Of a stretch of DNA of 20,478 bases, positions 1 to 18,411 are shown piece by piece (within the stretch, counting starts at the first letter, position 1; each line of letters opens with the position of its first letter). The notes beneath the pieces were generated by a model, which had not been told where the DNA came from, did not search any database, and worked only from the letters and a program-made list of their open reading frames with translations. Origin of the DNA: a virus; UHGV virus genome UHGV-0138524; one strand, given 5' to 3'. The position numbers and the translations under genes are program-made.

Positions 1-55
1 GTAGAGCCGGTCACACACACCGCTGCGCCTAATTTTGCTCCCTCTCCCAAACCAA
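1..55. repeat. 55-bp exact direct repeat, copy 1 (identical to 19892-19946); encodes the first residues of a tail-fibre variable segment on the minus strand
   Basis: Base-by-base comparison of 1-55 with 19892-19946; identity stops at 56 (g) versus 19947 (c), the first base of the outer half-site. Confidence 0.9.
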
Positions 56-662
56 GGTTTTTAAGAACGTCGCCGGCCAGTCCCGCGTCAACCATTTCTT
101 TCAGAGCATTAGCGATTAACGGGTACTGCTTGTGTGGATTGGCGGCCTCAACATGTTTTTTCATCAGGTTATCAGCATATCCTTTCACCTCGATAATCTT
201 GTCGTCGACATACTGGCGCGTTGCCAGCACGACTGCCGGGTCGATTTTCAGGGTGATTGCCGATGTGTTCGACACAATCAGAATCATGCGAATGGTCTGC
301 GTGCGACCGCTTCCCTCCTGCAGTTGTGGCTTGTAGGTCTCCGGACAGTTCGCCACGGCAATCAGAATACCATCATCGTCATAGAGACCAATCTCGCGGA
401 TCCAGAAACCACCTTCATTCTCGGGAATAATCTGTTCCGCGATAATCTGACTGGTATTGGCCGGGTCAACGGTCAGCAGGTTCAGCGGCGCGATGCGTTT
501 CTGGTTAATGAGCTTCGTCTGCGCCGGGTCAGGGGTCGGCAACGTACCATTCGCATCACCGACGGCCATCTGCGTCAGGTTGAGTTTGGTACCGAGTGCC
601 GCCGCGTTCGCCAGCCGCGCCGCGCCCTGATTGGTCAGAATGGCAAAATATTTTGCGGTCAT
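1..662 (-). CDS. H: Tail fibre protein, N-terminal constant domain (P2 gpH-like), reading through crossover site L into a variable segment; 3' end lies outside the window
   Basis: Hand translation of the minus strand from ATG at 662-660: MTAKYFAILTNQGAARLANA...GILIAVANCPETYKPQLQEGSGRTQTIRMILIVS...[23 protein letters not shown], resembling the P2 H N-terminus from memory; start overlaps the gpI stop (ATGA); not in the ORF track because it is open at the window edge. Confidence 0.8.
   Translation of the reverse strand, partial: MTAKYFAILTNQGAARLANAAALGTKLNLTQMAVGDANGTLPTPDPAQTKLINQKRIAPLNLLTVDPANTSQIIAEQIIPENEGGFWIREIGLYDDDGILIAVANCPETYKPQLQEGSGRTQTIRMILIVSNTSAITLKIDPAVVLATRQYVDDKIIEVKGYADNLMKKHVEAANPHKQYPLIANALKEMVDAGLAGDVLKNLGLGEGAKLGAAVCVTGS
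43..68. other. DNA-invertase crossover site L (gix/hix-like), inside the tail fibre gene at the constant/variable boundary
   Basis: TCTCCCAAACCAAGGTTTTTAAGAAC; core AAACC-AA-GGTTT matches the hix/gix consensus as recalled. Confidence 0.7.
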
Positions 663-1267
663 GCGTTCACTCTCAGGTTATCAATCAAATGGATGGCCGA
701 GGCCGGGTAATATTCACCGCCGACGACAATCTCCTCGGGGGTGTAGGGGTAAACAGTCAGCGCGTCGCCGTGATAGCATCCCGCGCCGACATACAGTTCG
801 CCGGTCGAGCTCAGACTGATAGCCAGCCCGGTCAGGTGGCGACTTGCCGGTTTGGCGTCTTCAATCAGGCGCTCAAGCTCCTGATACATTTCGTCAGTGA
901 TGCCGCTGTCGAGGACGCCAACAACGAGGCGGAATGTGCCTGGCTCCTCGTCGAGTTGCCACCACTCGCGCACCTCAATCAGAAAGCCGAGCGGCTCGAC
1001 GACCCGACGCAATGCGCTGATGGTGCCTTTGTGCTGATGGACGAAAAACGAGGACGCGCAGACGTTGCGCTTTGTCGCCTCCGGCCATTTCTCATCCCAC
1101 CTGTCGACCGACAGCGCCCACGCCAGATACGGCAGCAGCTTTACCGGGCAGGTGCGCCAGTTCCACAGGGTGCGCAGCGGTACCGGCACGCGCTGAATCT
1201 CAGAGAACGCAGCGGCGGCGGCAACCTCCAGCGGCGACGAGCCAACGGGTAATAGCCGGTCACTCAT
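659..1267 (-). CDS. I: Baseplate assembly protein (P2 gpI-like)
   Basis: 202-aa ORF starting MSDRLLPVGSSPLEVAAA..., resembling P2 gpI; sits immediately upstream of H as in P2. Confidence 0.8.
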   Translation of the reverse strand: MSDRLLPVGSSPLEVAAAAAFSEIQRVPVPLRTLWNWRTCPVKLLPYLAWALSVDRWDEKWPEATKRNVCASSFFVHQHKGTISALRRVVEPLGFLIEVREWWQLDEEPGTFRLVVGVLDSGITDEMYQELERLIEDAKPASRHLTGLAISLSSTGELYVGAGCYHGDALTVYPYTPEEIVVGGEYYPASAIHLIDNLRVNA

Positions 1268-1598
1268 CCGAGCCCCCGATAGTTATCTGGTACTCAGTAC
1301 AATTCGACGCCTGCGACTTACTCAGCACAATGTCGGCCTGCGGTGATGCCAGTTCGACACGCTGCACCCCCTCAACATGCAGCGCCGCGTAAATGGCCGA
1401 CAGACGGATATCACGCCCGAGGCGGTGCTGCGCGCTGATGTAACTCTGCAGCTTTTGTTCTGATGCCTGCCTGATGGGCTCAGACTCGGGGCCGGGGTAA
1501 ACGTAGAGCGTCGCGTCAATTTGGTACGGCACAATCTCGGCTGACTGGACGGTCAATTCCGCTTGGCTGAATGAATCCGCGACGCTGTTCCGCCGCAA
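1260..1598 (-). pseudogene. J: Baseplate protein J, C-terminal fragment only (5'-truncated)
   Basis: 112-aa ORF (...TVQSAEIVPYQIDATLYVYPGPESEP...HRLGRDIRLSAIYAALHVEGVQRVEL...) resembles only the C-terminal third of P2 gpJ; upstream sequence switches to portal-like coding on the other strand. Confidence 0.65.
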
Positions 1599-2040
1599 GT
1601 ATTATCAGAACGGCGCGCACGCAGGCTACATCATGTATGTGACTGACCCGGCGCAGAGCGCGACCGACGTCGAATCGCTGCGCGAGGCGATGCGCAACTC
1701 AAAAGGGCTCGGCAACTTTAAGAACCTGTTTTTCTACGCTCCCGGCGGAAAACCGGACGGCATCAAAATCGTGCCACTGAGCGAGGTCGCCACAAAGGAT
1801 GACTTTTTCAACATCAAGAAGGCCAGTGCCGCCGATCTGATGGACGCGCACCGCGTACCGTTCCAGCTCATGGGCGGCAAGCCCGAGAATATCGGTTCAC
1901 TCGGTGATGTTGAGAAGGTGGCAAAGGTATTTGTGCGCAACGAGCTGTCGCCGCTACAGGACAGGTTCAGGGAGGTAAATGACTGGCTCGGCATGGAGGT
2001 CATCAGATTCAAAGAGTACACCCTCGACAACCCAGAATAA
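1594..2040 (+). pseudogene. Q: Portal protein (P2 gpQ-like), C-terminal fragment only
   Basis: Translation ...FRRKYYQNGAHAGYIMYVTDPAQSATDVESLREAMRNSKGLGNFKNLFFYAPGGKPDGIKIVPL...HRVPFQLMGGKPENIGSLGDVEKVAKVFVRNELSPLQDRF... resembles the C-terminus of P2-family portal proteins; the frame is open only from 1507, so the N-terminal two-thirds are absent. Confidence 0.6.
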
Positions 2041-2070
2041 CTTAGGCCGCCACAATCTCTGCGCTCATTA

Positions 2071-2099
2071 TTGAAGATGCAATCTGCGAAAGCTATAGT
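2071..2099 (+). promoter_or_regulatory. Candidate sigma70 promoter for the 334-aa ORF
   Basis: TTGAAG (2071-2076), 17-nt spacer, TATAGT (2094-2099), about 19 nt upstream of the ATG at 2118. Confidence 0.4.
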
Positions 2100-2117
2100 G
2101 CATCGAATATCAAAACA

Positions 2118-3122
2118 ATGGGCGCGGAGATTAATATTTTGGAAACTGATTTTAAAATAACCCTCGAAGGTTTCGCTACTGAGCAAGAAGCAAATAATAT
2201 CGGTAATTTCACACTAGAAGCTATCCGAGCTTTAACAAAAAATCTCAATCTTGATATCTCCAAATTAAAATGCGTGATTGTTTCCTATAACTTCAGTGAA
2301 GCTCTTCAAAAGGTAACATCCTCTTACCAACACAAATCCCCTAGTTCATTTACCAATAGCAAACAGGGCGCAGCCGTCGGGCAGTTAGTAACAAAAATTG
2401 GCAATGATGGGCTATGTGAAGAATATACCCTTGTGCTATCGATTGATTTTTTTGTTGAGCTTTTCAATGATGGTAGCTTCTTAAAACTGAAAGAAGAAGG
2501 ATACCTCGCAGTCATCCATCGCATTCACCATGAATTAGTGCACGTACATGAAAAAAACTTACTAACATGCTTAGCCCAAAACTTTACAGTCAACGAGTAT
2601 GGTAGCGCGCTTCTTATCTCAGCCACGCGTGCATGGTCTGAATATCTCGCTAATTACATGTCTTCGGGGTCTGCCCCTCAAGAAACTATCGATTTATTTT
2701 TAGAGAATCTTGACACTGTTGTAAATGAAGTATCTGACGAGATTGAAAAACTCATCTGGGGTTATAAGTACGGTAATATTTCTCTGAATGACATGTATCT
2801 TGAAGTAAAAAAACGTATCAGGCTAATCATCAACTCTTATGCTTATGCGATGGGTTATGTCCATTCTCTAAACATCAATATTAAAGAATACGATCCAAAG
2901 CTATCCCTTACACTATCCAACTCAAAGATAAGATATCAATTATCAGAATTAGGCATTGCTTTTCAGAATCTTTATGGGAAGTTTAATGACCAGCACATTA
3001 CAGGTTTTGGTGATTTTCGGGAGATAACAATAATCATTGATGAAATATTCAAGCAGTTTGGGCTTGTTTTAGAGTGTCCCGATTGGTCTGGCGACGGTGA
3101 ACTCTACATACATGTAAATTAG
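2118..3122 (+). CDS. Hypothetical 334-aa protein with an HExxH (zincin-like) motif; AT-rich accessory gene between the portal remnant and cos
   Basis: Long ORF in clearly AT-rich DNA compared with its neighbours; motif IHRIHHELVHVHE (HELVH) at about 2524-2550; no phage core gene recognised. Confidence 0.6.
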   Translation: MGAEINILETDFKITLEGFATEQEANNIGNFTLEAIRALTKNLNLDISKLKCVIVSYNFSEALQKVTSSYQHKSPSSFTNSKQGAAVGQLVTKIGNDGLCEEYTLVLSIDFFVELFNDGSFLKLKEEGYLAVIHRIHHELVHVHEKNLLTCLAQNFTVNEYGSALLISATRAWSEYLANYMSSGSAPQETIDLFLENLDTVVNEVSDEIEKLIWGYKYGNISLNDMYLEVKKRIRLIINSYAYAMGYVHSLNINIKEYDPKLSLTLSNSKIRYQLSELGIAFQNLYGKFNDQHITGFGDFREITIIIDEIFKQFGLVLECPDWSGDGELYIHVN

Positions 3123-3341
3123 TTTAATCATAGTAGAAACATAATTAGCAGTTTGAATCCTGCCACTCCTGTAAAGCCGCTGCTCCTGGTGGCTTTTCCA
3201 TGCACACCACCATCACGCATCAGATGCGTCTCACGCGCACGAACACACTCGACCACCAACGAACCAGCAGCGACCACGACAGCGCCATCACGACGCGCTC
3301 AGAGGATAATTTTTATTATTACGCATCACTGCTGGCGCGCA

Positions 3342-3360
3342 ATGCTTTCCCCGCCACGCC
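3342..3360. other. cos cohesive-end sequence (186/P2 type)
   Basis: ATGCTTTCCCCGCCACGCC; reverse complement GGCGTGGCGGGGAAAGCAT equals the 19-nt cohesive end of coliphage 186 as I recall it and differs at two positions from P2 GGCGAGGCGGGGAAAGCAC. Confidence 0.6.
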
Positions 3361-3520
3361 TGCCCGCTTTATGGGGCGGTTTTAATGCAGTTGCATGACA
3401 ACTCTGGATCCGCGCTAGCTCTGGCGGCGCACGGACAGAACGGGCAAGACTGACGCATGCAAAACCATGCACCTAATGCATGCACGACTAAAAAACGGGA
3501 AATTCGCGGAAAAATGGCAT

Positions 3521-3550
3521 AAAAAAACCGGCATTCAGGGTGCCGGTTTT
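3521..3550. terminator. Bidirectional rho-independent terminator at the end of the SOS operon
   Basis: A7 (3521-3527), stem CCGGCA (3528-3533) / TGCCGG (3541-3546), T4 (3547-3550); on the minus strand the hairpin is followed by U7. Confidence 0.6.
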
Positions 3551-3568
3551 AGTCTGGTTTTGTCGCGA

Positions 3569-3670
3569 TTAATGGCCGCGCAATGCGCCAATAACACTGT
3601 TGAGGCACATGCTGGCAACAATCATCAGAAAAATCGTCGTCCACGGATTTTCATAAACGATAGATAACAT
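3569..3670 (-). CDS. Candidate 33-aa hydrophobic (single transmembrane-like) peptide
   Basis: Hand translation MLSIVYENPWTTIFLMIVASMCLNSVIGALRGH; AAGAGGAA Shine-Dalgarno-like sequence upstream of the ATG; ends just before the terminator; absent from the ORF track, which lists nothing under 60 aa. Confidence 0.3.
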   Translation of the reverse strand: MLSIVYENPWTTIFLMIVASMCLNSVIGALRGH

Positions 3671-3686
3671 ATTTATATAGTTCCTC

Positions 3687-3992
3687 TTATTTGCGCATTC
3701 TGATGTGATTTAACAGGTGTTTGATAACGACTGATAGCTCATCTTTACCGGCCTGCTCGACCATTTTTGCGGTGTAGCTTTCCACCTCGCGAGAGCTCAG
3801 GTCGTTATTTAAAGCCATTAAAGTCAGATTCTTTGCCCAATCGGCAAACGGGTCATTTTTCGATGAAAGGGGATTTTGCATGTACAAAAACCTCGAATTA
3901 TTTAACCAGCAGACGGTTGAAGTATTTGCGACGCTATGACCGGCTAACGCCTCGCGTAGCTCGTTGTTCAACCCCGCCAGCACTGAAAGCAA
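3687..3992 (-). CDS. Hypothetical 101-aa protein in the SOS operon (TTG start as called)
   Basis: ORF downstream of the DinI-like gene in the same orientation; no family recognised. Confidence 0.4.
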   Translation of the reverse strand: MLSVLAGLNNELREALAGHSVANTSTVCWLNNSRFLYMQNPLSSKNDPFADWAKNLTLMALNNDLSSREVESYTAKMVEQAGKDELSVVIKHLLNHIRMRK

Positions 3993-4014
3993 GTTTCAGC
4001 ACCGGCGGCGTTTG

Positions 4015-4248
4015 TTAATGCAGCCAGCTATCGTCCTCCCATACCTGCTGCATGATTTCCATTACTCGTTTTTTATCTTCGTCCAGTTTCAAACCGCTTA
4101 GTTCAACGCCATTAGCGGAGCCCTTGCGAATTCGGATAGCAGTCTTTGGGTAAATAGGTTGAAGATTGCGGTACAGTTCAGCCTCAAGTGCATCCAATGT
4201 TGCCTGACTAATTTTTTGCTCTTTATCCAACGTGATATTGATTCTCAT
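4015..4248 (-). CDS. DinI-family protein (DNA-damage-inducible protein I-like; Tum-like module)
   Basis: 77-aa MRINITLDKEQKISQATLDALEAELYRNLQ...KKRVMEIMQQVWEDDSWLH resembles E. coli DinI and the DinI-like part of 186 Tum. Confidence 0.65.
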   Translation of the reverse strand: MRINITLDKEQKISQATLDALEAELYRNLQPIYPKTAIRIRKGSANGVELSGLKLDEDKKRVMEIMQQVWEDDSWLH

Positions 4249-4251
4249 AAT

Positions 4252-4434
4252 CTAATCAGCCTTATAAAAATTATCATCTTCGGTTTCGTTATTTTCGCTG
4301 TTTGCTAGGTCTGCAATGAGAGTGAGCGCGAGCTTTAAGTCTGATGGCTTGCAGTTTGCAATCAGAGATACCTCGGCAATAAATTGCACACAAGCCCACT
4401 TTTGCTGCGTTCGGCTGAAATGTTCGCCAACCAT
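4252..4434 (-). CDS. Hypothetical 60-aa protein, first gene of the SOS operon
   Basis: ATG at 4434 preceded by GGGAGGG; a LexA box lies about 20 nt upstream; stop is 3 nt before the DinI-like ATG. Confidence 0.4.
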   Translation of the reverse strand: MVGEHFSRTQQKWACVQFIAEVSLIANCKPSDLKLALTLIADLANSENNETEDDNFYKAD

Positions 4435-4453
4435 GAAATCCCTCCCACAGGGT

Positions 4454-4473
4454 TACTGTATATTTATACAGTA
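4454..4473. promoter_or_regulatory. LexA (SOS) box overlapping the promoter of the minus-strand operon
   Basis: TACTGTATATTTATACAGTA, a near-perfect match to the palindromic CTGT-N8-ACAG consensus. Confidence 0.75.
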
Positions 4474-4547
4474 GCACGTATTGGCAAAAGATGGGAAGAA
4501 AAAAAACGAATAGAGCGATTGCTGTATGTGCATGATATGGATATGAA

Positions 4548-6770
4548 TTACCCATGTATTGGTTTTGATGCTTCAGCCATCGCCGCAACACGATTAAGGA
4601 TTTTCCGAGCTTTAGCCTCATGCGATGGTGCTGCGGAAAATATTTCTCCTTTGGCCGTTCCGCGTAGCCATTTACCATCAAAACAACTTTTACCACCGGC
4701 CATCAGGTGCAGGGCTTCGCCCCGGCTGATATTAATGCCGGTTGTCAGATGTATCTCATCGATAGTTTTAGCTATAGCTGCGTTTTGCTCATCCGTTCCG
4801 TGGATGAATTTTCGCCGTGCTGCTGGCTTTTGCTTCCTGAGTCGGTTGGTCAATTCTCGTCTTTCACGCCGACTCAGTGGTTTTGTTAAATCCAGTATCG
4901 GTGGATCGCTTTCGCTTCCCGTACAGTTATTGACAGAACTCCGAGGGACGGCTTTGCCGTCCTGAAGGTCAACGGCCAAATCAACAGCACGCTTCGGAAC
5001 AATCTTCCACTGAGTGAGCCGGGTTAAAATCGGGCTTCCTGCACCTATGGAGGAATCGTAGACCCCCTTAATACATACCGTTTCCTCACCGTACTGATTA
5101 AGCTCGGTGCGCGGTTCATACAGTGTGCGCACCTGTAAATCATCGCGACGGACAAACGGCCCACCCTGAGCATTAACATAACCAGCCCAGTCACCAGCGT
5201 CGGCGGCATCATGGACGGCGGCAAACTCAACGCTCAGACCGTGCGCGGTTTCGGTATCAGCGAGGCGACGCAACTCACGGTAAACCGTCACCGGCGCACC
5301 ACCAATAAACTGAAACTGACGGATGTGCCAGCGCGCAGCCCATGCTGAAACGGCGGGGGCTGTCTCTTTCAGCAGCTCACCGCTTTCATCATCGGTTTCA
5401 CCATCGAGAGCATAACCGTCGATATTTTTTGAAATGTATTTAGCAACATAGCCGGTTGCGCTGCCTTTCTCCGGGTCAATGGACTCGGCGTGGAAACGTG
5501 CTTTTTTGGATTTATCGCTTTTCAGTTCGTGGCGGTCTTCTTTCCATGCGTATTTACGGACGATGGAGCGAACATATTCAACATCTTCCGGCAGCATGAA
5601 CATCAGCATGTGCCAGTGTGGAGTGCCGTCGTGATGGGGCTCGGCGACACGAATACCGAAAATACGGACATCTTCCCGATGTAGTTTGGCACGGATACGC
5701 GCCCAGATACCGGTTAGATAGTTTTGCGTGTCAGCCGGGCTGGCACCGCTCCATTTGCTGTTACGGTAACCGGCTTTAGTCGTGGCGTGATATTTTGACG
5801 GCGCGGTTAGAGTGTAAAACTCACCGACATAACCGAGCTCATTACAGATGTTTTCAAACCCACGAATGCGGGTCATGAGCTCACAGCGGCGAATCGCAGG
5901 GTTAGCAACTGAGCCATCATATTTTTCAATTAGGCTGATACGGTTGCCGTCTTCGTCTTCGAGATCCAGACCTTTGAGAAATTCACGAGTGCGGCGCTTT
6001 TGTTCACGCCAGTCAGTCACGCAGTTTTTACTCGCGTAAGTGTTTTTTTTCTTACTGACGTTGCCGACTGCAATTTGCAGGTGTTCGCGCCACGTAGCTG
6101 CAACACGGCGCAAACGACCGCGCCACCACCCATCGTTAAACATTTTGGCGATAGCCGGTGCGATTTCATCCGCACCGACATATTTTTTTTCAACCCGCTC
6201 CCAATGTGGTGGGATAACGTTGAATTGGAGGGAAATAAAGCCAGCACGAATATACCAGGTGTACAGCGTTTTAAGCTCGCCGAATCCGTGGTCATTAATG
6301 TTGGCAAGTTCACCACGAATGAAATTAGCAATATCAGCGGCCAACAGGTCAACATCAGCGCGCGACATGTCCGGGAGACGGTTATATTGGGCGACCATAT
6401 TAACCATGCGTGACGACAGATATTGCATTTGCTGAGTATCAAAATGACTTCCAAAAACAGCGGTTGATACCTTGCTGTTGATACCAGCGCATTCGTATTT
6501 TTTTGCGACCAGTTCAAGACGCGGCAATGCCTTTTTGCAGAAGCTGATTAAAAATGCATTGGCTCGTTGACTACCCTGATTTTGCTCCAGCACCGCAGCA
6601 GTGCGATAAACATCTAACCGCACGCAGTCGGGCTGGAGAGAAAGCACCTTTTTTGCATGCAGCAAAGCCGCGAACATACGGTCGCGGCGATGCTGTTGCT
6701 CATAAGTAAGGTATGGGCTGGAGATTGCCGACCGTGGGACGTTCCACGGATAAGCGAATTGAACAGCCAA
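4548..6770 (-). CDS. A: Replication initiation endonuclease (P2 gpA-like rolling-circle initiator)
   Basis: 740-aa ORF with HDGTPHWHMLMF (His-hydrophobic-His) and GYVAKYISKN (paired tyrosine) motifs typical of the family. Confidence 0.85.
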   Translation of the reverse strand: MAVQFAYPWNVPRSAISSPYLTYEQQHRRDRMFAALLHAKKVLSLQPDCVRLDVYRTAAVLEQNQGSQRANAFLISFCKKALPRLELVAKKYECAGINSKVSTAVFGSHFDTQQMQYLSSRMVNMVAQYNRLPDMSRADVDLLAADIANFIRGELANINDHGFGELKTLYTWYIRAGFISLQFNVIPPHWERVEKKYVGADEIAPAIAKMFNDGWWRGRLRRVAATWREHLQIAVGNVSKKKNTYASKNCVTDWREQKRRTREFLKGLDLEDEDGNRISLIEKYDGSVANPAIRRCELMTRIRGFENICNELGYVGEFYTLTAPSKYHATTKAGYRNSKWSGASPADTQNYLTGIWARIRAKLHREDVRIFGIRVAEPHHDGTPHWHMLMFMLPEDVEYVRSIVRKYAWKEDRHELKSDKSKKARFHAESIDPEKGSATGYVAKYISKNIDGYALDGETDDESGELLKETAPAVSAWAARWHIRQFQFIGGAPVTVYRELRRLADTETAHGLSVEFAAVHDAADAGDWAGYVNAQGGPFVRRDDLQVRTLYEPRTELNQYGEETVCIKGVYDSSIGAGSPILTRLTQWKIVPKRAVDLAVDLQDGKAVPRSSVNNCTGSESDPPILDLTKPLSRRERRELTNRLRKQKPAARRKFIHGTDEQNAAIAKTIDEIHLTTGINISRGEALHLMAGGKSCFDGKWLRGTAKGEIFSAAPSHEAKARKILNRVAAMAEASKPIHG

Positions 6771-6771
6771 T

Positions 6772-6993
6772 TTATACCCCCCGATAGTGTTTGTTTTTTA
6801 GCTCTGCTATTTGCTGGCAGGTTATGCAAAAAGCCACGCCCGGAATCGCAATGCGGCGAGCTTCCGGGATTGGTGTGTCACATTCCTCGCAAAGAAAACG
6901 GGAAGGTGCAGCGATACGGGTGCGTGCGTTGCTGATGTGGCGTTCGCGGTCTTCCTGCTCGCGCAGTTGTGCTAAATCCATTGCGTCGGCCAT
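6772..6993 (-). CDS. TraR/DksA-family C4 zinc-finger protein
   Basis: 73 aa with CEECDTPIPEARRIAIPGVAFCITCQ; start overlaps the upstream stop (TAATG). Confidence 0.65.
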   Translation of the reverse strand: MADAMDLAQLREQEDRERHISNARTRIAAPSRFLCEECDTPIPEARRIAIPGVAFCITCQQIAELKNKHYRGV

Positions 6994-7220
6994 TAGTGCA
7001 GCTCCTGTGATTCATTCTCAAAGCGGGTTGCTTCACGGCGCAGCAGTTCGGCAGCTTCGGTGCCGCTCATACCCTCTCTGGTAATATGAATAGCCAGCGC
7101 CTCAAGGCGGATGGAAACAGCGAGCGCGCGGTCTTTACGCTCTTCTTTTTTTGCATCGGTCAGCAATACGGCCAGCGCATCGCTATCAGTGTTAAAACTA
7201 CGGATTTCGGTATTACGCAT
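6993..7220 (-). CDS. Hypothetical early-operon protein (75 aa)
   Basis: ORF translationally coupled to the downstream zinc-finger gene. Confidence 0.45.
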   Translation of the reverse strand: MRNTEIRSFNTDSDALAVLLTDAKKEERKDRALAVSIRLEALAIHITREGMSGTEAAELLRREATRFENESQELH

Positions 7221-7287
7221 AATTAACTCTCCTGCTTTCGGGCAATAAGATGCCCGGCGGGTTTACGCCATTAAATTTCTGTTTGGA

Positions 7288-7626
7288 TTAATTCGGCATG
7301 GTTAGCCGTTTGGGAAATAAGCTCACTACTGCACGAAAATGATTCATCGCTGTAATAAGCGCCTTTTTCTCGTCAGTAGTCAGCTCACTTAATTCGAGTT
7401 CATGACGAGCCGCCGGTATTTTTGCCAGAAAGAAAATAGCGGCCAGCGCCCGATTATTTTCTTCAAATTGTGGGTCACGTTTATCGCGCATATCATCGAC
7501 AAAACGTTCAACCTCTTTCCAGCTATCGCCCCAATATCTCGCGCGCAATTCGGCAACATGATTGAGACCGGCCAGACGTTCACCCGCTTTTAGCGGAACA
7601 GTCGCGGAAACAGCTTCGATAGCCAT
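7288..7626 (-). CDS. Hypothetical early-operon protein (112 aa)
   Basis: ORF in the early operon orientation; no family recognised. Confidence 0.45.
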   Translation of the reverse strand: MAIEAVSATVPLKAGERLAGLNHVAELRARYWGDSWKEVERFVDDMRDKRDPQFEENNRALAAIFFLAKIPAARHELELSELTTDEKKALITAMNHFRAVVSLFPKRLTMPN

Positions 7627-7790
7627 GATTCCCCCCGCTTTTGAGTAGAGAGGCCAGCCAGTAAATCAGCCTGCGAGTGGCTCGGGTGCCAGCGCTTGCC
7701 GTCCTTACCTGCGATCCAGCCGTGGCCGTAGTGCATGCCGGGGCTTTGCTTAACGAGCAGCGATGCGAATGACGGTTCACTTTTCAGCAT
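7590..7790 (-). CDS. Hypothetical small protein (about 66 aa)
   Basis: ATG at 7790 just downstream of the B stop; overlaps the next gene, so uncertain. Confidence 0.25.
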   Translation of the reverse strand: MLKSEPSFASLLVKQSPGMHYGHGWIAGKDGKRWHPSHSQADLLAGLSTQKRGESWLSKLFPRLFR

Positions 7791-7797
7791 ACGCACC

Positions 7798-8337
7798 TCA
7801 AATCAGACCAAACGATGCGCCAATACCGCTCATGGTATCGACCACGCTCGACATAGCTGGATTAGTCTGCAGACGTGCATGCAGCGCCAGAGCCGACAAT
7901 GACAACATGCGAATGCCGGAGTTAACGCTTTCAATCATGTTGTGCTTACGGGCAGTGGTCAGACGTTCATCAGATACCGCGCCGCTCGCCAGTTCGCCGA
8001 GTTCACGCATCGCGCGCATGACATAAGACTGCAATTTGTCTTTAGCCAACTCATTAACCGGCACGCATGGTAGGCAGTGAATCTGCGCTAAAAAACCATC
8101 AATGAGGGTTGAGTCTTCGGTCAGGTCAGTCAGCAGCCACAATTCAGGCGGCGTGAACTGGTGAGGCTGTTCCGGGTTGAGCTTGTTACGTAACGTTTGA
8201 ACGTTCATACCTGCACGCTCGGCCAGCTTCGCCATGTTGTGACGCTGTGCGAAAATGCGGCATGCTTCGTCATAGTGGGGATGTTTGGAAACCTGAAAAT
8301 CAAACATGGTTAAATTCCCTCTAACTTGCATAATCAA
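7798..8337 (-). CDS. B: Replication protein B (P2 gpB-like)
   Basis: 179 aa MIMQVRGNLTMFDFQVSKHPHYDEACRIFAQRHNMAKLAERAGMNVQTLRNKLNPEQPHQF... resembles P2 B. Confidence 0.75.
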   Translation of the reverse strand: MIMQVRGNLTMFDFQVSKHPHYDEACRIFAQRHNMAKLAERAGMNVQTLRNKLNPEQPHQFTPPELWLLTDLTEDSTLIDGFLAQIHCLPCVPVNELAKDKLQSYVMRAMRELGELASGAVSDERLTTARKHNMIESVNSGIRMLSLSALALHARLQTNPAMSSVVDTMSGIGASFGLI

Positions 8338-8339
8338 AT

Positions 8340-8711
8340 TCAGTTAAGAGCGGTGCGCTGGTCGATGTAGCGACAATCAATCGCTTGTTGAGTCAGCTTA
8401 TCGCGCCATGCTTTTACATTTACGAGGGTTCGGCTTCGTTTAGCAGCTTCCTCTTTGTTGGAAAAGTCTTTGGTCGGAGCTTTGAGAAGGACTCCCTCAT
8501 CGAGCCATTGCCAGACCAGACGCTCGCTAACACCGCGAGTAGCGGCGAAGTCTTTCACAGTCATCGTGTCTGACATAGCGGAGCGAATCATTGTCTGTAG
8601 AGCTGGCAGCATGGCGGTAACGATGGCATCAAACTGTGTTGGGTCTAGCAGCACAGTTTGATTTTGTGAGTTTTGCGAGTCGTGCGTCGAGATTGATTTT
8701 GCATCTGACAT
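8340..8711 (-). CDS. Cox/Apl-like helix-turn-helix regulator or excisionase, first gene of the early lytic operon
   Basis: 123 aa with an HTH-like stretch MTVKDFAATRGVSERLVWQWLDEGVL; faces the repressor gene; the true start may be an internal Met. Confidence 0.45.
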   Translation of the reverse strand: MSDAKSISTHDSQNSQNQTVLLDPTQFDAIVTAMLPALQTMIRSAMSDTMTVKDFAATRGVSERLVWQWLDEGVLLKAPTKDFSNKEEAAKRSRTLVNVKAWRDKLTQQAIDCRYIDQRTALN

Positions 8712-8823
8712 ATCGCATTATCTCCTGTTGTTTGAAATGTAGTGCAGTGGTGTGCATCTTGGTCGGTGAGCACCAATATAGATCGCTAAATTTTGGTTGT
8801 AAACAAAATTCTTGTTGGTGTCA

Positions 8824-9670
8824 TATGTCTAAAAATGATGTTAATGCGTCTGCCGCATTGGAACGTGTCCTTTCTGCATACGGCTTTAAGCAGCAAAAGG
8901 AACTAGCCGAAAGGCTTGGCATACATGCAAACAACGTGAGTAGCTGGCTTGCTAGAAACGTAATCCCTAGCAACGTTTTCGTTGAGTGTGCTCTTGATAC
9001 TGGAGCTGACCTGCGATGGCTAATTAATGGTGAGCTTGCAAATGCAAGATTTGAAGTGGTGAAAACTAAGCTTAAAGGTAAGCAACTCTATGATGAAATC
9101 ATGGCAAATGGAGGGAGGGCGGTTCTGCGTCGGATTCTCGATGCGTATGGTTTTACTCTGCAAAAAGAGCTTGGAGATTTATTAGGTATATCTTCCGGCA
9201 CTATAAGCACTTGGGTTAGACGCGATTTTTTCCCCGGTGACGTGGTTGTCACTTGCGCCCTTGATACTGGCGTATCGTTAGAATGGTTATCAACCGGAAA
9301 AGGCCAGATGCGTAACAGTAATGATGGTGAACCGGCAAATGCTTTAACGATTAGAAAGTGCCGCCTCGAGGCTGGCGAACTCAAAGATATCGGACGCTGG
9401 ACTCCTGATATATCTATGGTTCCATCAAATACTGATGATTTAGTGTTTATTGATGGTGTGAGCACATCTTGGCTTGTTGATAGTTCTAACTCGAAGATAG
9501 GAAATGGTCGCTGGCTTATTGGTATTGATGGCGCACTCGATGTTTTTGACGTAATCAGGTTGCCAGGCGGAAAGGTCAGGTTATCAAATAAGTCTGCTGA
9601 GTTTGAATGTAATATTTCAGATATCACACCATCAGGTGCGGTTATTTTTACTTTGGAAAAGCATGTTTAA
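8824..9670 (+). CDS. CI-type immunity repressor (186 CI-like) with a tandemly duplicated N-terminal DNA-binding domain
   Basis: From the internal ATG at 8824 (MSKNDV...); repeat 1 LERVLSAYGFKQQKELAERLGIHANNVSSWLARNVIPSNVFVECALDTGADLRWLINGE and repeat 2 LRRILDAYGFTLQKELGDLLGISSGTISTWVRRDFFPGDVVVTCALDTGVSLEWLSTGK; the track ORF starts at 8636, inside the upstream gene. Confidence 0.65.
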
Positions 9671-9679
9671 GGAGCAGTA

Positions 9680-10018
9680 ATGAAAAAGTTTATATTTGCG
9701 ATAGTCTGCATTGCACTTTCTTCCTCAGCCATAGCCGCTGAGAAGTTTAAAGAGATAGACGGCGCTGCATATGGTGACAAGTGGCCTCTAACCTTTGAAA
9801 AGGCAAAGGTATCATGTGTTAACCGTGCTTATGCTTTTGTGTATGACATCAAAACTGATGATAGATATCCTCTGAATGGCATGGCGGTAGATGCTGTTAA
9901 ATCAGGAAAGCTGGAGGGGTCTAACTTAGATGACGTATGGAAGGATGACCCTGAGTATGACGGCGTTAAAATTTCAATTTCACCGGTGATTGATGCCGCT
10001 ACAGCCCTTTGTAATTAA
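9680..10018 (+). CDS. Secreted or periplasmic small protein (DUF2511/YebY-like, assigned from memory); moron between the repressor and int
   Basis: N-terminal signal peptide MKKFIFAIVCIALSSSAIAAE; GGAG 7 nt upstream of the ATG. Confidence 0.55.
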   Translation: MKKFIFAIVCIALSSSAIAAEKFKEIDGAAYGDKWPLTFEKAKVSCVNRAYAFVYDIKTDDRYPLNGMAVDAVKSGKLEGSNLDDVWKDDPEYDGVKISISPVIDAATALCN

Positions 10019-10042
10019 TTTTCTTTTAGCCTCGGTATCGCA

Positions 10043-11092
10043 ATGACTGTAAGTAAACAAAAAAGTGGAAAATGGTTGTGTGAACTCTATCCAAATGGTC
10101 GAGAAGGGCGGCGTATACGTCGGCAGTTCAATACCAAAGGTGAGGCCGAGGCATTTGAAGCATTTACCAAAAGCGAGAGTGAAGATAAGCCGTGGCTCGG
10201 CAAGAAAGAAGACCGCCGACGCTTAAGCGAGATTATTCAGCTTTGGCACAATTTGCACGGTCAAGCGTTAGTCGCCAGTAAGTCGAGATTTGCAAAGCTT
10301 CAAATCGTATGTAATGGACTTGGCGACCCGATTGCATCTCGCCTTACCGCGAAAGACTGGGCTCATTATCGTGACCGTCGATTACGTGGTGAAATAGACA
10401 ATGGTTATCATAAAGACCCCTCGAAATGGATCGCCAAACCTATAACCGTCAATCGCGAACAACAATACCTAGAAGCAGTGTTTAATGAGCTCCGCCGGTT
10501 AGGGGAGTGGAGCCTACCCAATCCACTTGATGGGATCCGAGTATTCAAAGAAGCTGAGAAAGAAATGTCCTGGCTAACTTTGTCTCAGCTCCCGGAGCTG
10601 TTTCGAGCCTGCGAGCAATACGGCAAAGAAGACCTCACCATGATTGTTAAGGTGTGCCTTGCAACCGGCGCTCGATGGGGGGAAGCGGAGAGATTGACCC
10701 GACCTCAACTTTCTCCATATAAACTAACGTTCACCAAAACCAAAGGTAAGAAGAATCGCACAGTTCCTATTCCTAAATGGCTGTACGACGAGTTGTCCGT
10801 ACGTCAAGGCAGAATGTTTAAACCCTGCTATCAGGAGTTTAAAAAGATGCTCAAACTAACGAATATTGAATTGACGGAAGGGCAGAAGACGCACGTTTTG
10901 CGTCATACTTTTGGTGCGCATTTTATGATGAACGGAGGGAATATACTGGTGCTGCAGAAAATTCTCGGACATGCCAATATTCGAGAAACAATGAAGTATG
11001 CGCACTTTGCTCCTGACCACCTTGAACAAGCTGTAACCCTCAATCCGTTATCGCTGTATGTTGGCGACAATGTGGCGGCAGAGGTTGCATAA
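10043..11092 (+). CDS. int: Tyrosine integrase (P2/186 family)
   Basis: 349 aa; N-terminus ...GKWLCELYPNGREGRRIRRQFNTKGEAEAFE; catalytic-region signature VLRHTFGAHFMMNGGNILVLQKILGHANIRETMKYAH. Confidence 0.85.
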   Translation: MTVSKQKSGKWLCELYPNGREGRRIRRQFNTKGEAEAFEAFTKSESEDKPWLGKKEDRRRLSEIIQLWHNLHGQALVASKSRFAKLQIVCNGLGDPIASRLTAKDWAHYRDRRLRGEIDNGYHKDPSKWIAKPITVNREQQYLEAVFNELRRLGEWSLPNPLDGIRVFKEAEKEMSWLTLSQLPELFRACEQYGKEDLTMIVKVCLATGARWGEAERLTRPQLSPYKLTFTKTKGKKNRTVPIPKWLYDELSVRQGRMFKPCYQEFKKMLKLTNIELTEGQKTHVLRHTFGAHFMMNGGNILVLQKILGHANIRETMKYAHFAPDHLEQAVTLNPLSLYVGDNVAAEVA

Positions 11093-11227
11093 CACTGCAA
11101 TTCACTGCATTAAAAATTACTTTAACTAGTTGTTTTATATGGTAAGTGTTTGTTCGCTGTGGGGTGTTAATAGGAGCGTCTTAACTGATAACGTATTCGC
11201 GCTACATCCAAAGCGTGTTATGAAACA

Positions 11228-11257
11228 AGGGGTTAGCGAATTGCTAACCCCTTTTTT
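11228..11257 (+). terminator. Rho-independent terminator downstream of int
   Basis: Stem AGGGGTTAGC / GCTAACCCCT with loop GAATT, followed by T6. Confidence 0.6.
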
Positions 11258-11310
11258 ATTGGTGGTGGCGGCAAATTGGCGGCAGAGGTTGGAGCGATGG
11301 CGACAGATAT

Positions 11311-11331
11311 AAAAAAACCTGCCGAAGCAGG
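11311..11331 (-). terminator. Rho-independent terminator downstream of ogr
   Basis: On the minus strand: CCTGC-TTCG-GCAGG followed by T7, just after the ogr stop. Confidence 0.55.
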
Positions 11332-11332
11332 T

Positions 11333-11551
11333 TCAAAGCCAAAGTTGCTGTTGTTGGTTTCTGATGGGGTGTGGCGGAGCAGGATCAACAGTACCCGGTT
11401 TCACAATGAATCTTGATAGCGTCTCAAAAGTGATAAATGTACATCCGCAATTTATGTTCTGGCACTGGTGATAACGTTCTTTTGTTTCGGTGCTAAGGTA
11501 CCGGCTAGTGCGAGCATGTGCGGCGTTTTGGCATAACGGGCAGTGCATCAT
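11333..11551 (-). CDS. ogr: Ogr/Delta-family zinc-finger late-gene activator
   Basis: 72 aa MMHCPLCQNAAHARTSRYLSTETKERYHQCQNINCGCTFITFETLSRFIVKPG... closely resembles P2 Ogr; GGGGA upstream of this Met; the track ORF starts 15 codons further upstream. Confidence 0.85.
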   Translation of the reverse strand: MMHCPLCQNAAHARTSRYLSTETKERYHQCQNINCGCTFITFETLSRFIVKPGTVDPAPPHPIRNQQQQLWL

Positions 11552-11626
11552 AATTATTTCCCCTGCTGGCGTATCTGAGGGAATAATAAACTTCAAAATT
11601 GCATTTGCAAGTTTTGGTTTGCTTTT

Positions 11627-12796
11627 TCACTCCTCATTTTCTTCTGAGCTGTACTCCACATCGGAGAGTTTAACCTCAAGCTCTAAGCCCGTCGTGAAAC
11701 CGTTATTATTGAGGTTGTGGGTCACCTTGCTGATTAACCATGCCTGCTCGTCTATGACGCGCTTAAAGCCTGACACGCGTACAGGCGTCTCAGGAAATAA
11801 ATCCGCTCGCCCTAGCGCCAGTGTGATTGAAAACTCCGCAACACCTCGCTGCAGTTTATCCCACTTAGCCTGAGCGGCGCGCATCGCCTGTGCCTTTGAG
11901 GCATAGACTGTCGTCAGCGCCAGCACGTTATCGGCTTCACCGGCCATGTACTCACCCTCACGTGCTTCCTGTTCTTTTTTGACCTTTGTCTTTTTGCTGA
12001 CCGGCTTTGCTTTTGGGTGTTCCAGTGCGCGCAGGTGCTTCTCTTTTGGCTTGCGTTTCAGCGTTACTTTCTGCTTTTGTGGCTTCGGGTCTTTGGTGTG
12101 CAACCATTTAGCAGTGACGCCGGTATAAGCCCCACGGTCGGCAATGGCAAACTGATGACGGTCACCATCACTGCGGGTCAGCGTCATTTGCGGGACGGGT
12201 TTGCCGCTGGCCGTCATCGCACTACCGGCTTTCAGAAACAACAGTTTCCCTGCCTTCACCGATACCGTTGCCCCGTTGCGGTCAGCCAGTCGACTCAAAA
12301 ATACCGCGTCGGATTCCTGCGACTGGTCGATATGCGGTACCGGGATTTTTTTCAGCGATTCCGCAATGCTGGCCGTCAGTTTGTTGCGCTTTGCGATGGT
12401 ACTGACCAGTTCGCCGATGGTGGTGTCGTGCCATGACTCTTCACGCCTGGAATTTAGCGTGCCGCGAAAGTCCGCGCTGCGCGCCCGGATGGTCAGGGTA
12501 TCAGGAGCCCCCCGGTGCTCAATCTCATCGACCGTAAAATCCCCCTTATTCAGCAGCGCCGAACCCTGCCAGCCAAGCCACAACGTCAGCACTGCCCCGC
12601 GCAGGGGTAACTCGACTTTCCCATCGGTGTCATCGAGCTCAATGTCGAGCTGGTCAGCTTCAAAGCCCCTATTGTCCGTCATGGTGAGAGAAATCAGCCG
12701 GTCGCTGAAGTTGCTGGTAATGTCCTGACTGTTCAGCGTCAGCATAAAAGCCGGTGCAAGGCTGGCACCGGCGTCAATTGCCATCCCCGTTATCAT
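11627..12796 (-). CDS. D: Tail protein D (P2 gpD-like late control/tail protein)
   Basis: 389-aa ORF in conserved P2 order (ogr-D-U-T); sequence resembles gpD. Confidence 0.8.
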   Translation of the reverse strand: MITGMAIDAGASLAPAFMLTLNSQDITSNFSDRLISLTMTDNRGFEADQLDIELDDTDGKVELPLRGAVLTLWLGWQGSALLNKGDFTVDEIEHRGAPDTLTIRARSADFRGTLNSRREESWHDTTIGELVSTIAKRNKLTASIAESLKKIPVPHIDQSQESDAVFLSRLADRNGATVSVKAGKLLFLKAGSAMTASGKPVPQMTLTRSDGDRHQFAIADRGAYTGVTAKWLHTKDPKPQKQKVTLKRKPKEKHLRALEHPKAKPVSKKTKVKKEQEAREGEYMAGEADNVLALTTVYASKAQAMRAAQAKWDKLQRGVAEFSITLALGRADLFPETPVRVSGFKRVIDEQAWLISKVTHNLNNNGFTTGLELEVKLSDVEYSSEENEE

Positions 12797-13278
12797 GCAG
12801 TGAAACCTCCGGGCATACCCTGCAGTTTATCTGTCAAATTACCGGCAGAGCCGAGAAGCTCACTGGCCTGTTTATTCAGGTCACCAAACATCTCTGTCAG
12901 CGATTCATCAACCCGTTTTAGCGAAAGCGTGAAATCAATCTTTCTGGCCGCACCATCACTGAAAAACTCGGTGCGTGTAGTCGATACTTTATCGACGATA
13001 TACATCCCGAGGATATTTCCGGTTCCCTCTATCAACGGCCACGCTCTGCCTTCATTGGCCATCACCTCTACAGCCTTAAGTGAGATCCAACCGCCAGTGA
13101 TAGCGGGGTATAGCGTACCAGCAAGCTGTATAGAGGTTTCCCCCTCGCCAAGAAACTGATAGGCAGGTGGTTTACCCACCCGGTCATTGGACACCCAGCG
13201 ATAATCTTTCGAATGCTGCATCGACTGGTAAGGCAGGGTGCGAAGTTCAAACACAAACATTCCGAGAGCAAGCATCAT
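12793..13278 (-). CDS. U: Tail protein U (P2 gpU-like)
   Basis: 161-aa ORF overlapping the D start; order and sequence resemble gpU. Confidence 0.8.
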   Translation of the reverse strand: MMLALGMFVFELRTLPYQSMQHSKDYRWVSNDRVGKPPAYQFLGEGETSIQLAGTLYPAITGGWISLKAVEVMANEGRAWPLIEGTGNILGMYIVDKVSTTRTEFFSDGAARKIDFTLSLKRVDESLTEMFGDLNKQASELLGSAGNLTDKLQGMPGGFTA

Positions 13279-13291
13279 CGTTTAATCCCCC

Positions 13292-15734
13292 TCAATAGTC
13301 GTGGGTCATGTTGGCACGCTGGCGGGCGCGTTTATCGCGCTCAATCTGTTCGAGCGTGTCGCGTAGTTGTCTGTCAAGCTGATGCCCCGGCGCAACACCT
13401 CCCGGCAGATTGATGTTGTATTCGCTTTTGCTCTGGTCAATGTAAGAGCGCCCCGCCGGTGCGGTAACTGGCTGATAAGCCTGATAGCCGCCATATGTGC
13501 TGGTTGCCGGGATGTAGGAATTACCCTGTGTGGCGGCATTGGTTTTGGCGGCGGTCTGGTCGAGGCTGTCCGACTCTTTGTTGATGATGCCGAGCTTTTC
13601 GAGAAGCCAGTCGACACCGCTGCGCAGCTTGTTAAAAACATTGAGCGGAGCCATCAAGGCAGAGGCCAGTGCCTGACCAAATATGACGCCGACACTTTTG
13701 CAGCTATCAAGCGTTTCCTGCGTGGCCTTAACCGGTGCTATCAGGTCTTTAAACCACTGCCAGACGCCGCGCAGTTTCTCGCCGAGACCATCAAAAATGG
13801 GAGCCAGTGGAGCGAACATTTCCCCGACTGGGGCAAAGGCACTCATGATGCCCTCAATCACTCCCGAGAAAAATGCGCTGATGGGCTCCCAATATTTACG
13901 GATGAGTAGCGCCCCCGCCACAATCGCCGCACCGACGGCCACTATCGGCCAGGTAATCGCACCGAGCGCTGTCGCAATGGCACTACCGACGACAGTAAAG
14001 ACCGTACCCAGCACGCCAGCAGCGGCGATAATGGCATTAATCCCCATGACAACCGGCCACGCAACGAGACCAATGCCGCCGATGATACCAATCAGCGCCA
14101 GCGCACCACCGGCGATGATGCCGATAGTTTCCGCTAACTCCTTGTTGTCTTTGATCCAGTCATCAAGCTTTAGCACATACCGTGTTGCTGTCTGAGTTAG
14201 CTGACGCAATGAGCTATCTTGCTGGTCGTAGAGGTCGGTACCGACGGCCTCATAAGCGGATTGAAACTCTTTGAAGTCGCCACCTAAGTTATCCTGCATA
14301 ATTTTAACAAGCTCTGCGGTTTTTCCGTCTGAGGCTTTCAGGGTGGAGGTTAGCTGGTCAAGTTTGCCGGTTGAGGCGGCAGTCATGAGCACCGCCGCCG
14401 CCGAACTGGCTTCCTCACCGAATATCGTTTTCATGTATTCGGCTTGTTGACCGGTGCCGAGATTGTTACGCTCAAAACTGGCCTGCATTTCCTTGAGGAT
14501 GGTAAAAATCGGGCGCGTGTTGCCTTTACTGTCGGAAGTTTTGACCCCCAGCTCCTTAAGCGCATCCCACGCTTTACCGGTCGGAGCCTGCAGGCGGCTT
14601 AAAACCGCACGGCTCCCGGTGCCGGCCATCGAGCCGGTGATTTTGGCGTCATGCAGGGCGCCCACCATTGCGGCAGTTTCTTCAATGCTGACACCGGCAT
14701 TTTTCGCCACCGGCGCGGCGTATGTCAGCGCATCGCTCAGCCCGTCGAAATCGGCAGCAGTTTTATTCATCACCGTCGACAGAACGTCGCCAATGTGCGC
14801 CACCTTGTCATTGGAAAGCTGAAACGCAGAGCGCATCCCCATCAGTAATGCGGCGTTTTCTTCCATCGTGCGACGGTTGGCAAGCGCCATATTGAGGGTG
14901 ACCGGTGTCGTCGCCTGAATGGCTGCCGCATCGCCGCCCCCTTTGGCGATAATAATCTGCGCACTGGCTGCATCATCAGCAGAAGCGGCTGTATTGTCAC
15001 CGAGCTGGCGTGCCTGTTTGCGTAGCGCCTCCATTTCTGGCGACTGCTTATCGACCCCGAGCACGGCCTGCAGCTCGGAATTTTTCTGCGCAAAGTCATA
15101 ACCGGGCATCAGTAATTTCACCCCGGCCATCGTTCCCGCTGTCGCGATACCTACCCCGGCAGCCCCTGCAGCGGCCATGTTACCGGCAAGCTCCTTGCCT
15201 GATTTATATCGCTCTTTCACCCGGCCTAATTTCGCCTGCTGCGCACTGACGCGCGAGTGCCTCACGCTGGCGGTTAAGCTGCGCCGTCGTTTCGCTGATG
15301 GAGGTTTTGAGCCGACGCTCATCGGCAGAAAGGGTGCGGGTATTAATACCGGCCTGCATCAGTTCGGAGCGCTGGCGCTGTACAGACGTTCTCAGACTGT
15401 TGTACTTCGTCTGTAGCTCAGAGGCAGCACGCTTTGCCGCTTCGAGTGCCTGCGCCTGCGCGCGGGTCGGACTGGTGGAGTTTTTAAACTGCACGGCCAG
15501 TTCACCGGCTTCGCGTTTCGCTTTCTCAAGCGCCTGACTGGTCACGGCCAGTTGCGCACTGGCCTTACGAAAGCCGTCGATTTTTGACGCCTGACCATTC
15601 AGGTCACGCAGCCCTTTTTGTGTTTCGCGAATATCGCCCGACAGGGTTTTACTCGCGGTCTGGATGGATTTAAGCGGTCGGGTCGCCTGGTCGACCGCTT
15701 TCAGCAAAACCTCAAGTCTCAGGTTATTACTCAT
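13292..15734 (-). CDS. T: Tail tape measure protein (P2 gpT-like), frame interrupted near 15250-15256 (two overlapping ORFs, 15734->15204 and 15322->13292); possible pseudogene
   Basis: N-terminal ORF ends ...NRQREALARQCAAGEIRPGERAI*; the second frame continues ...RVSAQQAKLGRVKERYKSGKELAGN...; hydrophobic Gly/Ala-rich segments typical of tape measure proteins. Confidence 0.75.
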
Positions 15735-16214: not shown

Positions 16215-16277
16215 GATGTTTTTCTCTGCTCTGAATGGGGATTAATAACCGGCCAGCAGTGCTGACCGGTCAGGGAA

Positions 16278-16796: not shown

Positions 16797-16811
16797 GTTG
16801 TTTCAGGCTCC

Positions 16812-17990: not shown

Positions 17991-18088
17991 CCGGTTAACT
18001 CCGTGGTTAGTGGGCAAGTGTTATTGTCCTGGCTGGTCTGTTGAGGGGCTATTTGTCAGTGTTGGGTGATGTCTGACACATTGAGACA

Positions 18089-18331: not shown

Positions 18332-18385
18332 GAGAAATAACCCGGTAAAAAGTCGGGATCATGCCAGCTGAACGGAATATCTGCA

Positions 18386-18411
18386 TTTTCTAAAAGGTTG
18401 GTTTAGGAGAT
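18386..18411. other. Crossover site M (degenerate outer half-site) bordering the invertible segment
   Basis: TTTTCTAAAAGGTTGGTTTAGGAGAT; the inner half GGTTTAGGAGA matches sites L and R, the outer half reads AAAGG instead of AAACC. Confidence 0.55.

Follow-up and report, generated by a model that had tools for sequence, protein, structure and literature searches.

A 186-type element of Escherichia coli with a single 9,933-bp deletion from baseplate gene J to the portal gene is probably a defective prophage in decay

Introduction

What is left of a P2-like temperate phage when a baseplate gene runs directly into the portal gene, and can the remaining element still excise, replicate or spread? 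This question is raised by a window of 20,478 nucleotides, the whole stretch of DNA that was analysed (UHGV virus genome UHGV-0138524). A first-pass annotation had proposed that an internal deletion fuses a fragment of J to a fragment of the portal gene. It had also proposed that the element, unable to build virions alone, is either a decaying prophage or, having kept cos, a potential passenger of a related helper phage. Here we map the junction, establish what was lost and what survives, and weigh the readings that these data allow.

Results

Judged by its sequence, the window is a temperate element of E. coli of the 186 type (Peduoviridae, 186/Eganvirus type). The 1008S13 prophage (NZ_CP147053.1; locus L003), which lies between rplS and yfiB, matches it at 99.8-99.9% in four collinear blocks. 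Window positions 40-1555, with H, I and a remnant of J (J'), correspond to L003 13077-14592; positions 1555-4012, with a portal remnant (Q'), a cargo ORF and cos, to 24526-26983; positions 3944-11186, from dinI, tum and A to cI and int, to 27320-34562; and positions 11174-18420, with ogr, D, U, T, E, FII and FI, to 4001-11249. The permutation at attP aside, gene order is collinear with this intact prophage and with annotated 186-like phages, and the deletion is the main break. The other departures are an indel of ~336 bp at 3944-4012 and the fibre-variable region beyond 18420, which is unmatched. Over the common parts, nucleotide identity is 99.9% to the 1008S13 prophage and 99% to vB_EcoM-613R3 (ON470592.1). 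Both share with the element the att site, cos, the portal-adjacent cargo ORF and the early region, whereas both differ from it in carrying the full J-W-V-S-R-lysis-X-L-M-N-O-P-Q block and an intact T.

Where exactly does the break lie? In megablast comparisons with phage and E. coli records, all matches on the J side stop and all matches on the portal side start at position 1555, and a three-way alignment of the window with both intact sides resolves the join as CTGGACGGTCA followed by ATTCCGCTTGG, with one shared base ('A'). The switch had earlier been placed near 1560-1633, and this position has to be revised. The interval absent from the element is L003 14593-24525, exactly 9,933 bp of the parental prophage. 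Alignment with the intact sides revealed no IS remnant, scar or repeat at the breakpoints, and IS-mediated, site-specific and homology-driven deletion were rejected on these grounds. The element was made by a single illegitimate-recombination deletion of 9,933 bp, with 1 nt of microhomology at the join.

The two remnants, fused by one internal deletion, map to residues 206-302 of J and 188-348 of the portal protein. J' (1260-1555, minus strand) comprises the last 97 codons of the 302-codon baseplate gene J and is indeed the C-terminal third that had been recognised in the minus-strand ORF. The start of J and the late promoter pV are both gone from it. Its product is 100% identical to that of the intact relative, 81% to 186 L and 78% to P2 J, and Pfam Baseplate_J aligns to it over profile positions 196-254 of 255. 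Q' (1555-2040, plus strand) comprises the last 161 codons of the 348-codon portal gene and lacks both a promoter and the native start, the first in-frame ATG being at 1633. Alignment of the frame at 1594-2040 bears out its portal origin, with identities of 100% to the intact relative, 98.8% to the 186 portal and 82% to P2 Q. Pfam Phage_portal matches the C-terminal part of its profile only (E = 2.7e-6; 27.3 bits, below the curated cut-off of 39.1). The description of this frame as only the C-terminus of Q was too narrow, as ~46% of the portal protein is kept, more than the extreme C-terminus.

The deletion extends from codon 205 of J to codon 187 of the portal gene and removes, in order, part of J, then W, V, S, R, lysC, lysB, the endolysin gene, the holin gene, X, L, M, N, O and P, and part of Q. 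Fourteen genes are wholly deleted, two (J and the portal gene) are truncated and T is frameshifted, which leaves the gene set of an autonomous phage incomplete. The loss of the head, terminase, lysis and most baseplate genes noticed at first reading is fully borne out. The genes for the capsid, its scaffold, the two terminase subunits and head completion have disappeared, as have X, those for holin, endolysin and spanins, the tail completion genes R and S, and the baseplate genes V and W; the element cannot build virions alone. By residue mapping onto annotated coordinates the equivalent interval is ~10.65 kb in 186 and ~11.2 kb in P2, so that the initial estimate of about 12 kb in P2 was roughly right. 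On the annotated 186 map this interval contains p12 and pV, the two divergent late promoters, together with the B-protein site that serves both. By this map the loss of pV deprives the surviving I, H and fibre chaperone genes of their promoter, and only the pJ (sheath-to-D) late operon retains one of its own.

Is the junction real, and how old is it? The identical junction 41-mer was found in contigs L004, L006, L010, L011 and L014. L011 is the window itself, the SPAdes contig NODE_1_length_20478_cov_5.37 of ENA assembly ERZ1755337; L004 and L006 are SPAdes contigs of other ENA assemblies, L010 is a MEGAHIT contig from ERZ27234110 and L014 is a 910-nt Logan contig from SRR1214490; a 26-mer junction pattern also matched L015 (OLDH01000001.1), the same record as L006. 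Altogether, contigs built by SPAdes, MEGAHIT or Logan in no fewer than 12 runs or assemblies carry the junction at 100% identity, and the sibling contigs are 100% identical to the window over the common element. Since an overlap of one base cannot cause a de Bruijn mis-join and the identical junction recurs, we take the deletion as real. The junction was not found in 5,426 complete E. coli genomes, in IMG/VR or in the GTDB representative genomes. This absence, together with the complete identity of the copies, indicates that the junction marks one recent clone. Over 18.4 kb the element differs from the intact 1008S13 prophage by ~17 SNPs and one 2-nt indel, plus 9 mismatches at a 69-nt repeat (3944-4012); so few differences argue that the deletion is recent.

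A second lesion lies in the tape-measure gene T (13292-15734, minus strand). Compared with the intact prophage, the gene has lost 2 nt near 15256, where it reads GCGCGAG in place of GCGCGCCAG, and it is thereby broken into two ORFs, one of 176 aa and one of 628-676 aa. Sibling contigs share this break, which in those that reach the junction is always found alongside the deletion; the private 176-aa T' product is known solely from Logan and ENA contigs of that series. This second inactivating lesion points to decay. The remainder of the retained pJ/pF late operon includes the tail sheath gene FI (16812-18017, minus strand) and FII (16278-16796), with E, U and D. On the far side of the contig edge, baseplate/tail gene I (659-1267, minus strand; Pfam Tail_P2_I, E = 3e-51) is intact and identical to that of the intact relative, and it is followed by the N-terminal constant part of the tail-fibre gene H (1-662, minus strand; Pfam Phage_tail_fib, E = 1e-63). 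The list of retained functions drawn up earlier (int, cI, A, B/ogr, sheath, tube, fibre and D) holds with one qualification, that the tape-measure gene is present in frameshifted form.

The fibre-variation region (18092-19952) contains a truncated invertase pseudogene (18092-18358, minus strand), two tail-fibre assembly genes (18769-19200, plus strand; 19172-19603, minus strand), the variable C-terminus of H (19597-19891, minus strand) and a 61-nt fibre-inversion crossover repeat (1-61 and 19892-19952), within which the contig edge falls. In sibling contigs that span the crossover (e.g. L004, L006, L010 and L017-L019), position 19952 joins position 1 and yields a complete H of 318 aa. The last 526 nt of the window belong to a different, intact-looking invertase gene that runs off the contig. 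Among the matches listed, this invertase is ~88% identical to E. coli sequences over its full length, and one further record reaches at least 99%. The simplest account of the window's right end is that assembly took a wrong or an alternative path through an exact repeat of 55 nt. The window itself was considered as a natural end-to-end circle and rejected, as it has no terminal overlap and the siblings close via the 61-nt repeat. The element proper is 19,891 bp, 65% of its 30,549-bp parent, and the window and sibling contigs close this circle without the missing structural module, which is not contiguous elsewhere in the element.

What has been spared? The immunity and integration module (8340-11092) differs from that of the intact relative by a sole SNP, at 8822. 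It comprises a Cox/Apl-like gene with weak similarity to Cox and Apl (8340-8711, minus strand), cI (8825-9670, plus strand), a gp28-like gene (9680-10018, plus strand) and int (10043-11092, plus strand). The replication endonuclease gene A (4548-6770, minus strand; Pfam Phage_GPA) is intact and the same as in the relative. The element also retains an SOS operon (4015-4473, minus strand), in which a perfect CTGT-N8-ACAG LexA box (4454-4473) sits directly upstream of a tum-like 60-aa ORF (4252-4434, minus strand), annotated in the relative with 'UV induction of prophage' and comparable to 186 p95/tum, and of dinI (4015-4248, minus strand; Pfam DinI). The late activator gene, the homologue of 186 B and P2 ogr (11333-11551, minus strand), is annotated as a DNA-binding regulator in L003 (4160-4378). 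In cI, cII, the Cox/Apl-like gene, int, A and the late activator there are zero coding differences from the full-length prophage. The cohesive-end sequence cos was correctly recognised as retained: the 19-nt GGCGTGGCGGGGAAAGCAT (3342-3360, minus strand) matches the cos of 186 letter for letter, and the sequence on either side of it shares 87% identity with the cos region of 186.

Between Q' and cos, a low-GC ORF of 334 aa with an HExxH motif (2118-3122, plus strand) is retained intact as cargo in the A-Q interval near cos, for which a defence hotspot has been described in P2-like phages (PMC9122126). The 334-aa protein is widespread in E. coli. Neither this ORF nor the small ORFs gave a Pfam or PADLOC match, bar a marginal mad1 hit (E = 8.5e-4) on the Cox/Apl-like 123-aa ORF.

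The arrangement of the element in the cell was approached through contig topology and the coverages given in contig names. A 13-nt attP core, GAGCGTCTTAACT (11174-11186), equals the 3' end of rplS and joins int to ogr, which is the excised or tandem configuration. Contigs joined at attP were present in at least eight samples, and attP forms dominate the assemblies. Two contigs of 19,946 nt with different starts both fit, by arithmetic, 19,891 + 55 nt, as a circular path in SPAdes would give. The integrated form was seen in two samples, as attL (int to yfiB; L006 and L010) and attR (ogr to rplS; L021 and L022). A recognisable phage origin, att-site integration between rplS and yfiB and the loss of essential virion functions are thus combined in one element, as in a defective prophage. 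The flanking chromosome is 98.6-99.2% identical to the flanks in 1008S13 and MB06232; as the flanks differ by ~1% while the prophage is near-identical, the host is an E. coli of another lineage. In ERZ1755106, coverage solved from contig names (15.5 kb at 5.69x; 8.5 kb, half of it flank, at 3.95x) is ~5.8x for the element versus ~1.5x for the flank, a rough figure from one sample that is compatible with extrachromosomal copies. From this topology and coverage, the element probably still excises.

Across assemblies the coverage of the element is nearly constant (5.1-6.5x), and in several of them it is NODE_1. Such uniform coverage and rank could stem from particle enrichment, which would favour helper packaging, or from a laboratory or reagent source.

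Discussion

Based on these observations, we consider that the element is probably a recent, clonal, 186-like defective prophage, which arose by one 9,933-bp deletion, is likely still competent for excision and replication, and is decaying. Of the two outcomes put forward in the first-pass annotation, decay is favoured by the second lesion in T, the single clonal occurrence and an independent deletion in a sibling prophage. The course of events that we propose is drawn from annotated 186 biology as regards induction, excision and replication. DNA damage would induce the SOS response and lead, through Tum anti-repression, to early transcription; excision by Int and the Cox/Apl-like protein would follow, and then A-dependent replication. 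The late activator could switch on the pJ operon alone, itself crippled by the frameshift in T. At this point the cycle would stall, with no capsids, complete tails or lysis functions to be made. In the absence of these three the element would remain as a defective prophage at the onset of decay, still conferring immunity and carrying its cargo; persistence as a phage or as a specialised satellite is not expected.

The independent deletion is that of the MB06232 prophage (NZ_CM129885.1). This prophage is 99.8% identical to the element, occupies the same rplS-yfiB site and likewise carries an internal late-gene deletion that spares int, cI, A, cos, D and ogr. It differs in that E' is fused to N', the portal, large terminase and scaffold genes are kept, and all sheath, tube, fibre, baseplate and lysis genes are missing. 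The MB06232 deletion is a separate event and shows that this type of prophage decays repeatedly. The closest described parallel is Sp13 of O157:H7 Sakai, a P2-like defective prophage without most morphogenesis genes, which circularises and replicates and whose DNA is found in a DNase-resistant particulate fraction (PMC2669165). Membership of the P2 family and the loss of most morphogenetic genes are common to both; Sp13 differs in belonging to another lineage, in having a P4 epsilon-like gene and in having been tested experimentally, whereas the present element is known from contig topology.

Could the element be spread by other phages? Helper packaging is possible in principle, given the intact cos and the attP-joined copies, and a helper-dependent, satellite-like element would, by virtue of its cos, be packaged and spread by a 186/P2-type phage, co-resident or superinfecting, that supplies terminase and capsids. 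A cos 19-mer identical to that of 186 with conserved flanks, the dominance of attP-joined (excised or tandem) forms, and an element that is the longest contig in at least five assemblies and apparently over-represented relative to its flank are in keeping with this idea. So are the precedent of Sp13 (PMC2669165) and a 99.9%-identical prophage in a host whose flanks differ by ~1%, which is compatible with recent horizontal movement. However, genes for helper exploitation are missing, and all called genes correspond one-to-one to those of the intact parental prophage; useless tail genes are retained, one of them already frameshifted. No difference separates the copies (100% identity), and both integrated assemblies place the element at a single chromosomal site (attL in each). 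The junction is missing from 5,426 E. coli genomes, IMG/VR and GTDB, at odds with a conserved multi-host lineage. Size also argues against helper packaging. Packagers of the cos type need a cos site near the head-full point, and P4 trimers package poorly in P2-size heads (PMC6893505); at 19.9 kb the monomer reaches 65% of the parental length and a dimer would reach 130%, sizes that suit a cos packager poorly. Satellite P4 itself resembles the element in its P2-type cos, its dependence on P2-type head, tail and lysis functions, and its own integrase and replication functions. It differs in its length of 11.6 kb, in sid, psu, delta and epsilon, in capsid-size redirection and in forming a widespread conserved lineage, none of which is found here. 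A satellite-like element is unlikely in our view.

A related and also improbable reading is that of a newly arisen 'mini-186', an SOS-inducible, self-excising and self-replicating 19.9-kb cos replicon that is no longer lytic and is over-represented as free circles or through packaging by a resident P2/186-type phage. If true, it would be a snapshot of a satellite arising from a temperate phage by a single deletion step. R-type tailocins were also considered, as they too lack head genes and encode a sheath, tube, tape measure and fibre of P2 type. They differ in that the whole baseplate, the genes for tail completion and a lysis cassette are retained. The present element has lost every lysis gene, V, W, R, S and X, and the N-terminal two-thirds of J, and its T is frameshifted; a tailocin was rejected on this gene content.

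The attP junction could also be read as the product of tandem chromosomal copies (attL-element-attP-element-attR), in which case the element might be entirely immobile. Tandem P2 lysogens are known, attL, attR and attP were all assembled, and an array would raise the depth of the element above that of its flank with no excision. Yet the depth ratio of ~4 in ERZ1755106, itself rough, would need about four copies, and the int, attP, Cox/Apl-like and SOS modules match those of an apparently intact prophage, giving no reason for excision to fail. We regard an immobile array as quite improbable. That the J'-Q' join is an assembly or library artefact is very improbable: the ~5x coverage of the SPAdes contig is low and the right end of the window does appear mis-joined via the 55/61-nt repeat, but the junction 41-mer recurs in independent assemblies from three assemblers and in the 910-nt Logan contig, the 1 nt common at the join offers no k-mer path that could make it, and the junction co-occurs with the private T frameshift, so that a chimeric contig was rejected.

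What are the implications of a decaying 186-like prophage of this kind? The process is ordinary prophage decay, and the type of element is already known from cases such as Sp13. Were over-representation and helper packaging both true, the deletion would mark a one-step route from phage to helper-dependent element; nothing yet requires this. The value of the locus is that of a precisely mapped case of decay, in which one non-homologous deletion strips away every gene of the head, packaging and lysis block. What survives comprises the functions for immunity, integration and replication, the SOS switch, cos and a hotspot cargo gene, and the next lesion is already present in a now-useless tail gene. 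It also carries a caution for genome catalogues, as virus-prediction pipelines would label such a 20-kb circular contig a 'complete' phage genome, and would do so wrongly.

Differences from the intact prophage and between deleted elements

How far do the deleted element and its relatives differ outside the J'-Q' deletion? In comparison with the intact prophage of E. coli 1008S13, the window lacks, at 3944-4012, a segment of approximately 336 bp that contains a 69-aa ORF and would be flanked by two 69-nt direct repeats, themselves imperfect. Some relatives have these ~336 bp and others do not, and the difference looks like a repeat-mediated indel polymorphism. Across the immunity region the two sequences depart from each other at one position only, a C/T SNP at window 8822, situated 3 nt upstream of the start codon of cI and possibly within the cI ribosome-binding region; the comparison here is again with the intact prophage. 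In the tape-measure gene T, a 2-nt deletion near window 15256 (GCGCGCCAG to GCGCGAG) shifts the reading frame after ~160 codons (window 15204-15736); every sibling contig bearing the deleted element shares this lesion, which the intact relative does not have.

A separate rearrangement was found in E. coli MB06232 (NZ_CM129885.1), whose prophage is 99.8% identical and occupies the same integration site. Here a deletion joins the tail chaperone gene E to the major capsid gene N (7708-8509 of that locus, L016), and the sheath, tube, fibre, baseplate, lysis and head-completion genes are missing. This E-N deletion is independent of that in the window.

An ORF between the portal gene and cos

The region between the portal gene and cos contains a plus-strand ORF of 334 aa (window 2118-3122), with a GC content of ~38% and an HExxH motif (HHELVH), for which no match was found in Pfam or PADLOC. 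The exact sequence of this ORF is carried by 829 contigs, the named ones being mostly E. coli, and its cluster also has members from Salmonella and Citrobacter. The ORF sits within the A-Q interval, a known defence hotspot in P2-like phages.

Fibre crossover repeats and invertases

Two copies of the fibre crossover site are present at window 1-61 and 19892-19952, identical over 55 nt and matching over 61 nt with one mismatch. It is through this repeat that the window enters, at its right end, the gene of an intact-looking Pin/Gin/Hin-type invertase, of which the first ~140 residues are encoded (window 19953-20478) before the gene leaves the contig; sibling contigs instead continue at the repeat into the tail-fibre gene H. 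The right-end invertase shows only ~88% identity to E. coli sequences over its full length. It is probably part of another element in the sample or an alternative recombination product. The element's own invertase (minus strand, window 18092-18358; Pfam Resolvase) is a truncated pseudogene that retains only ~80-89 N-terminal residues, and is likewise truncated in the intact relative. For fibre switching, an invertase would therefore have to be provided in trans.

Attachment site, coverage and SOS control

The attachment core GAGCGTCTTAACT (window 11174-11186) corresponds to the 3' end of rplS, and integration takes place between rplS and yfiB. The deleted element has been recovered in attP (the window), attL (contig L010) and attR (contig L021) versions. 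Its k-mer coverage, read from contig names, is near-constant at 5.1-6.5x over seven separate assemblies, in at least five of which it is the longest contig. This pattern gives a hint of technical replication, of a contaminant shared between assemblies or of selective enrichment of the element DNA. A perfect LexA box, TACTGTATATTTATACAGTA, is located at window 4454-4473, immediately upstream of the tum-like gene and dinI. The element should be SOS-inducible, as 186 is.
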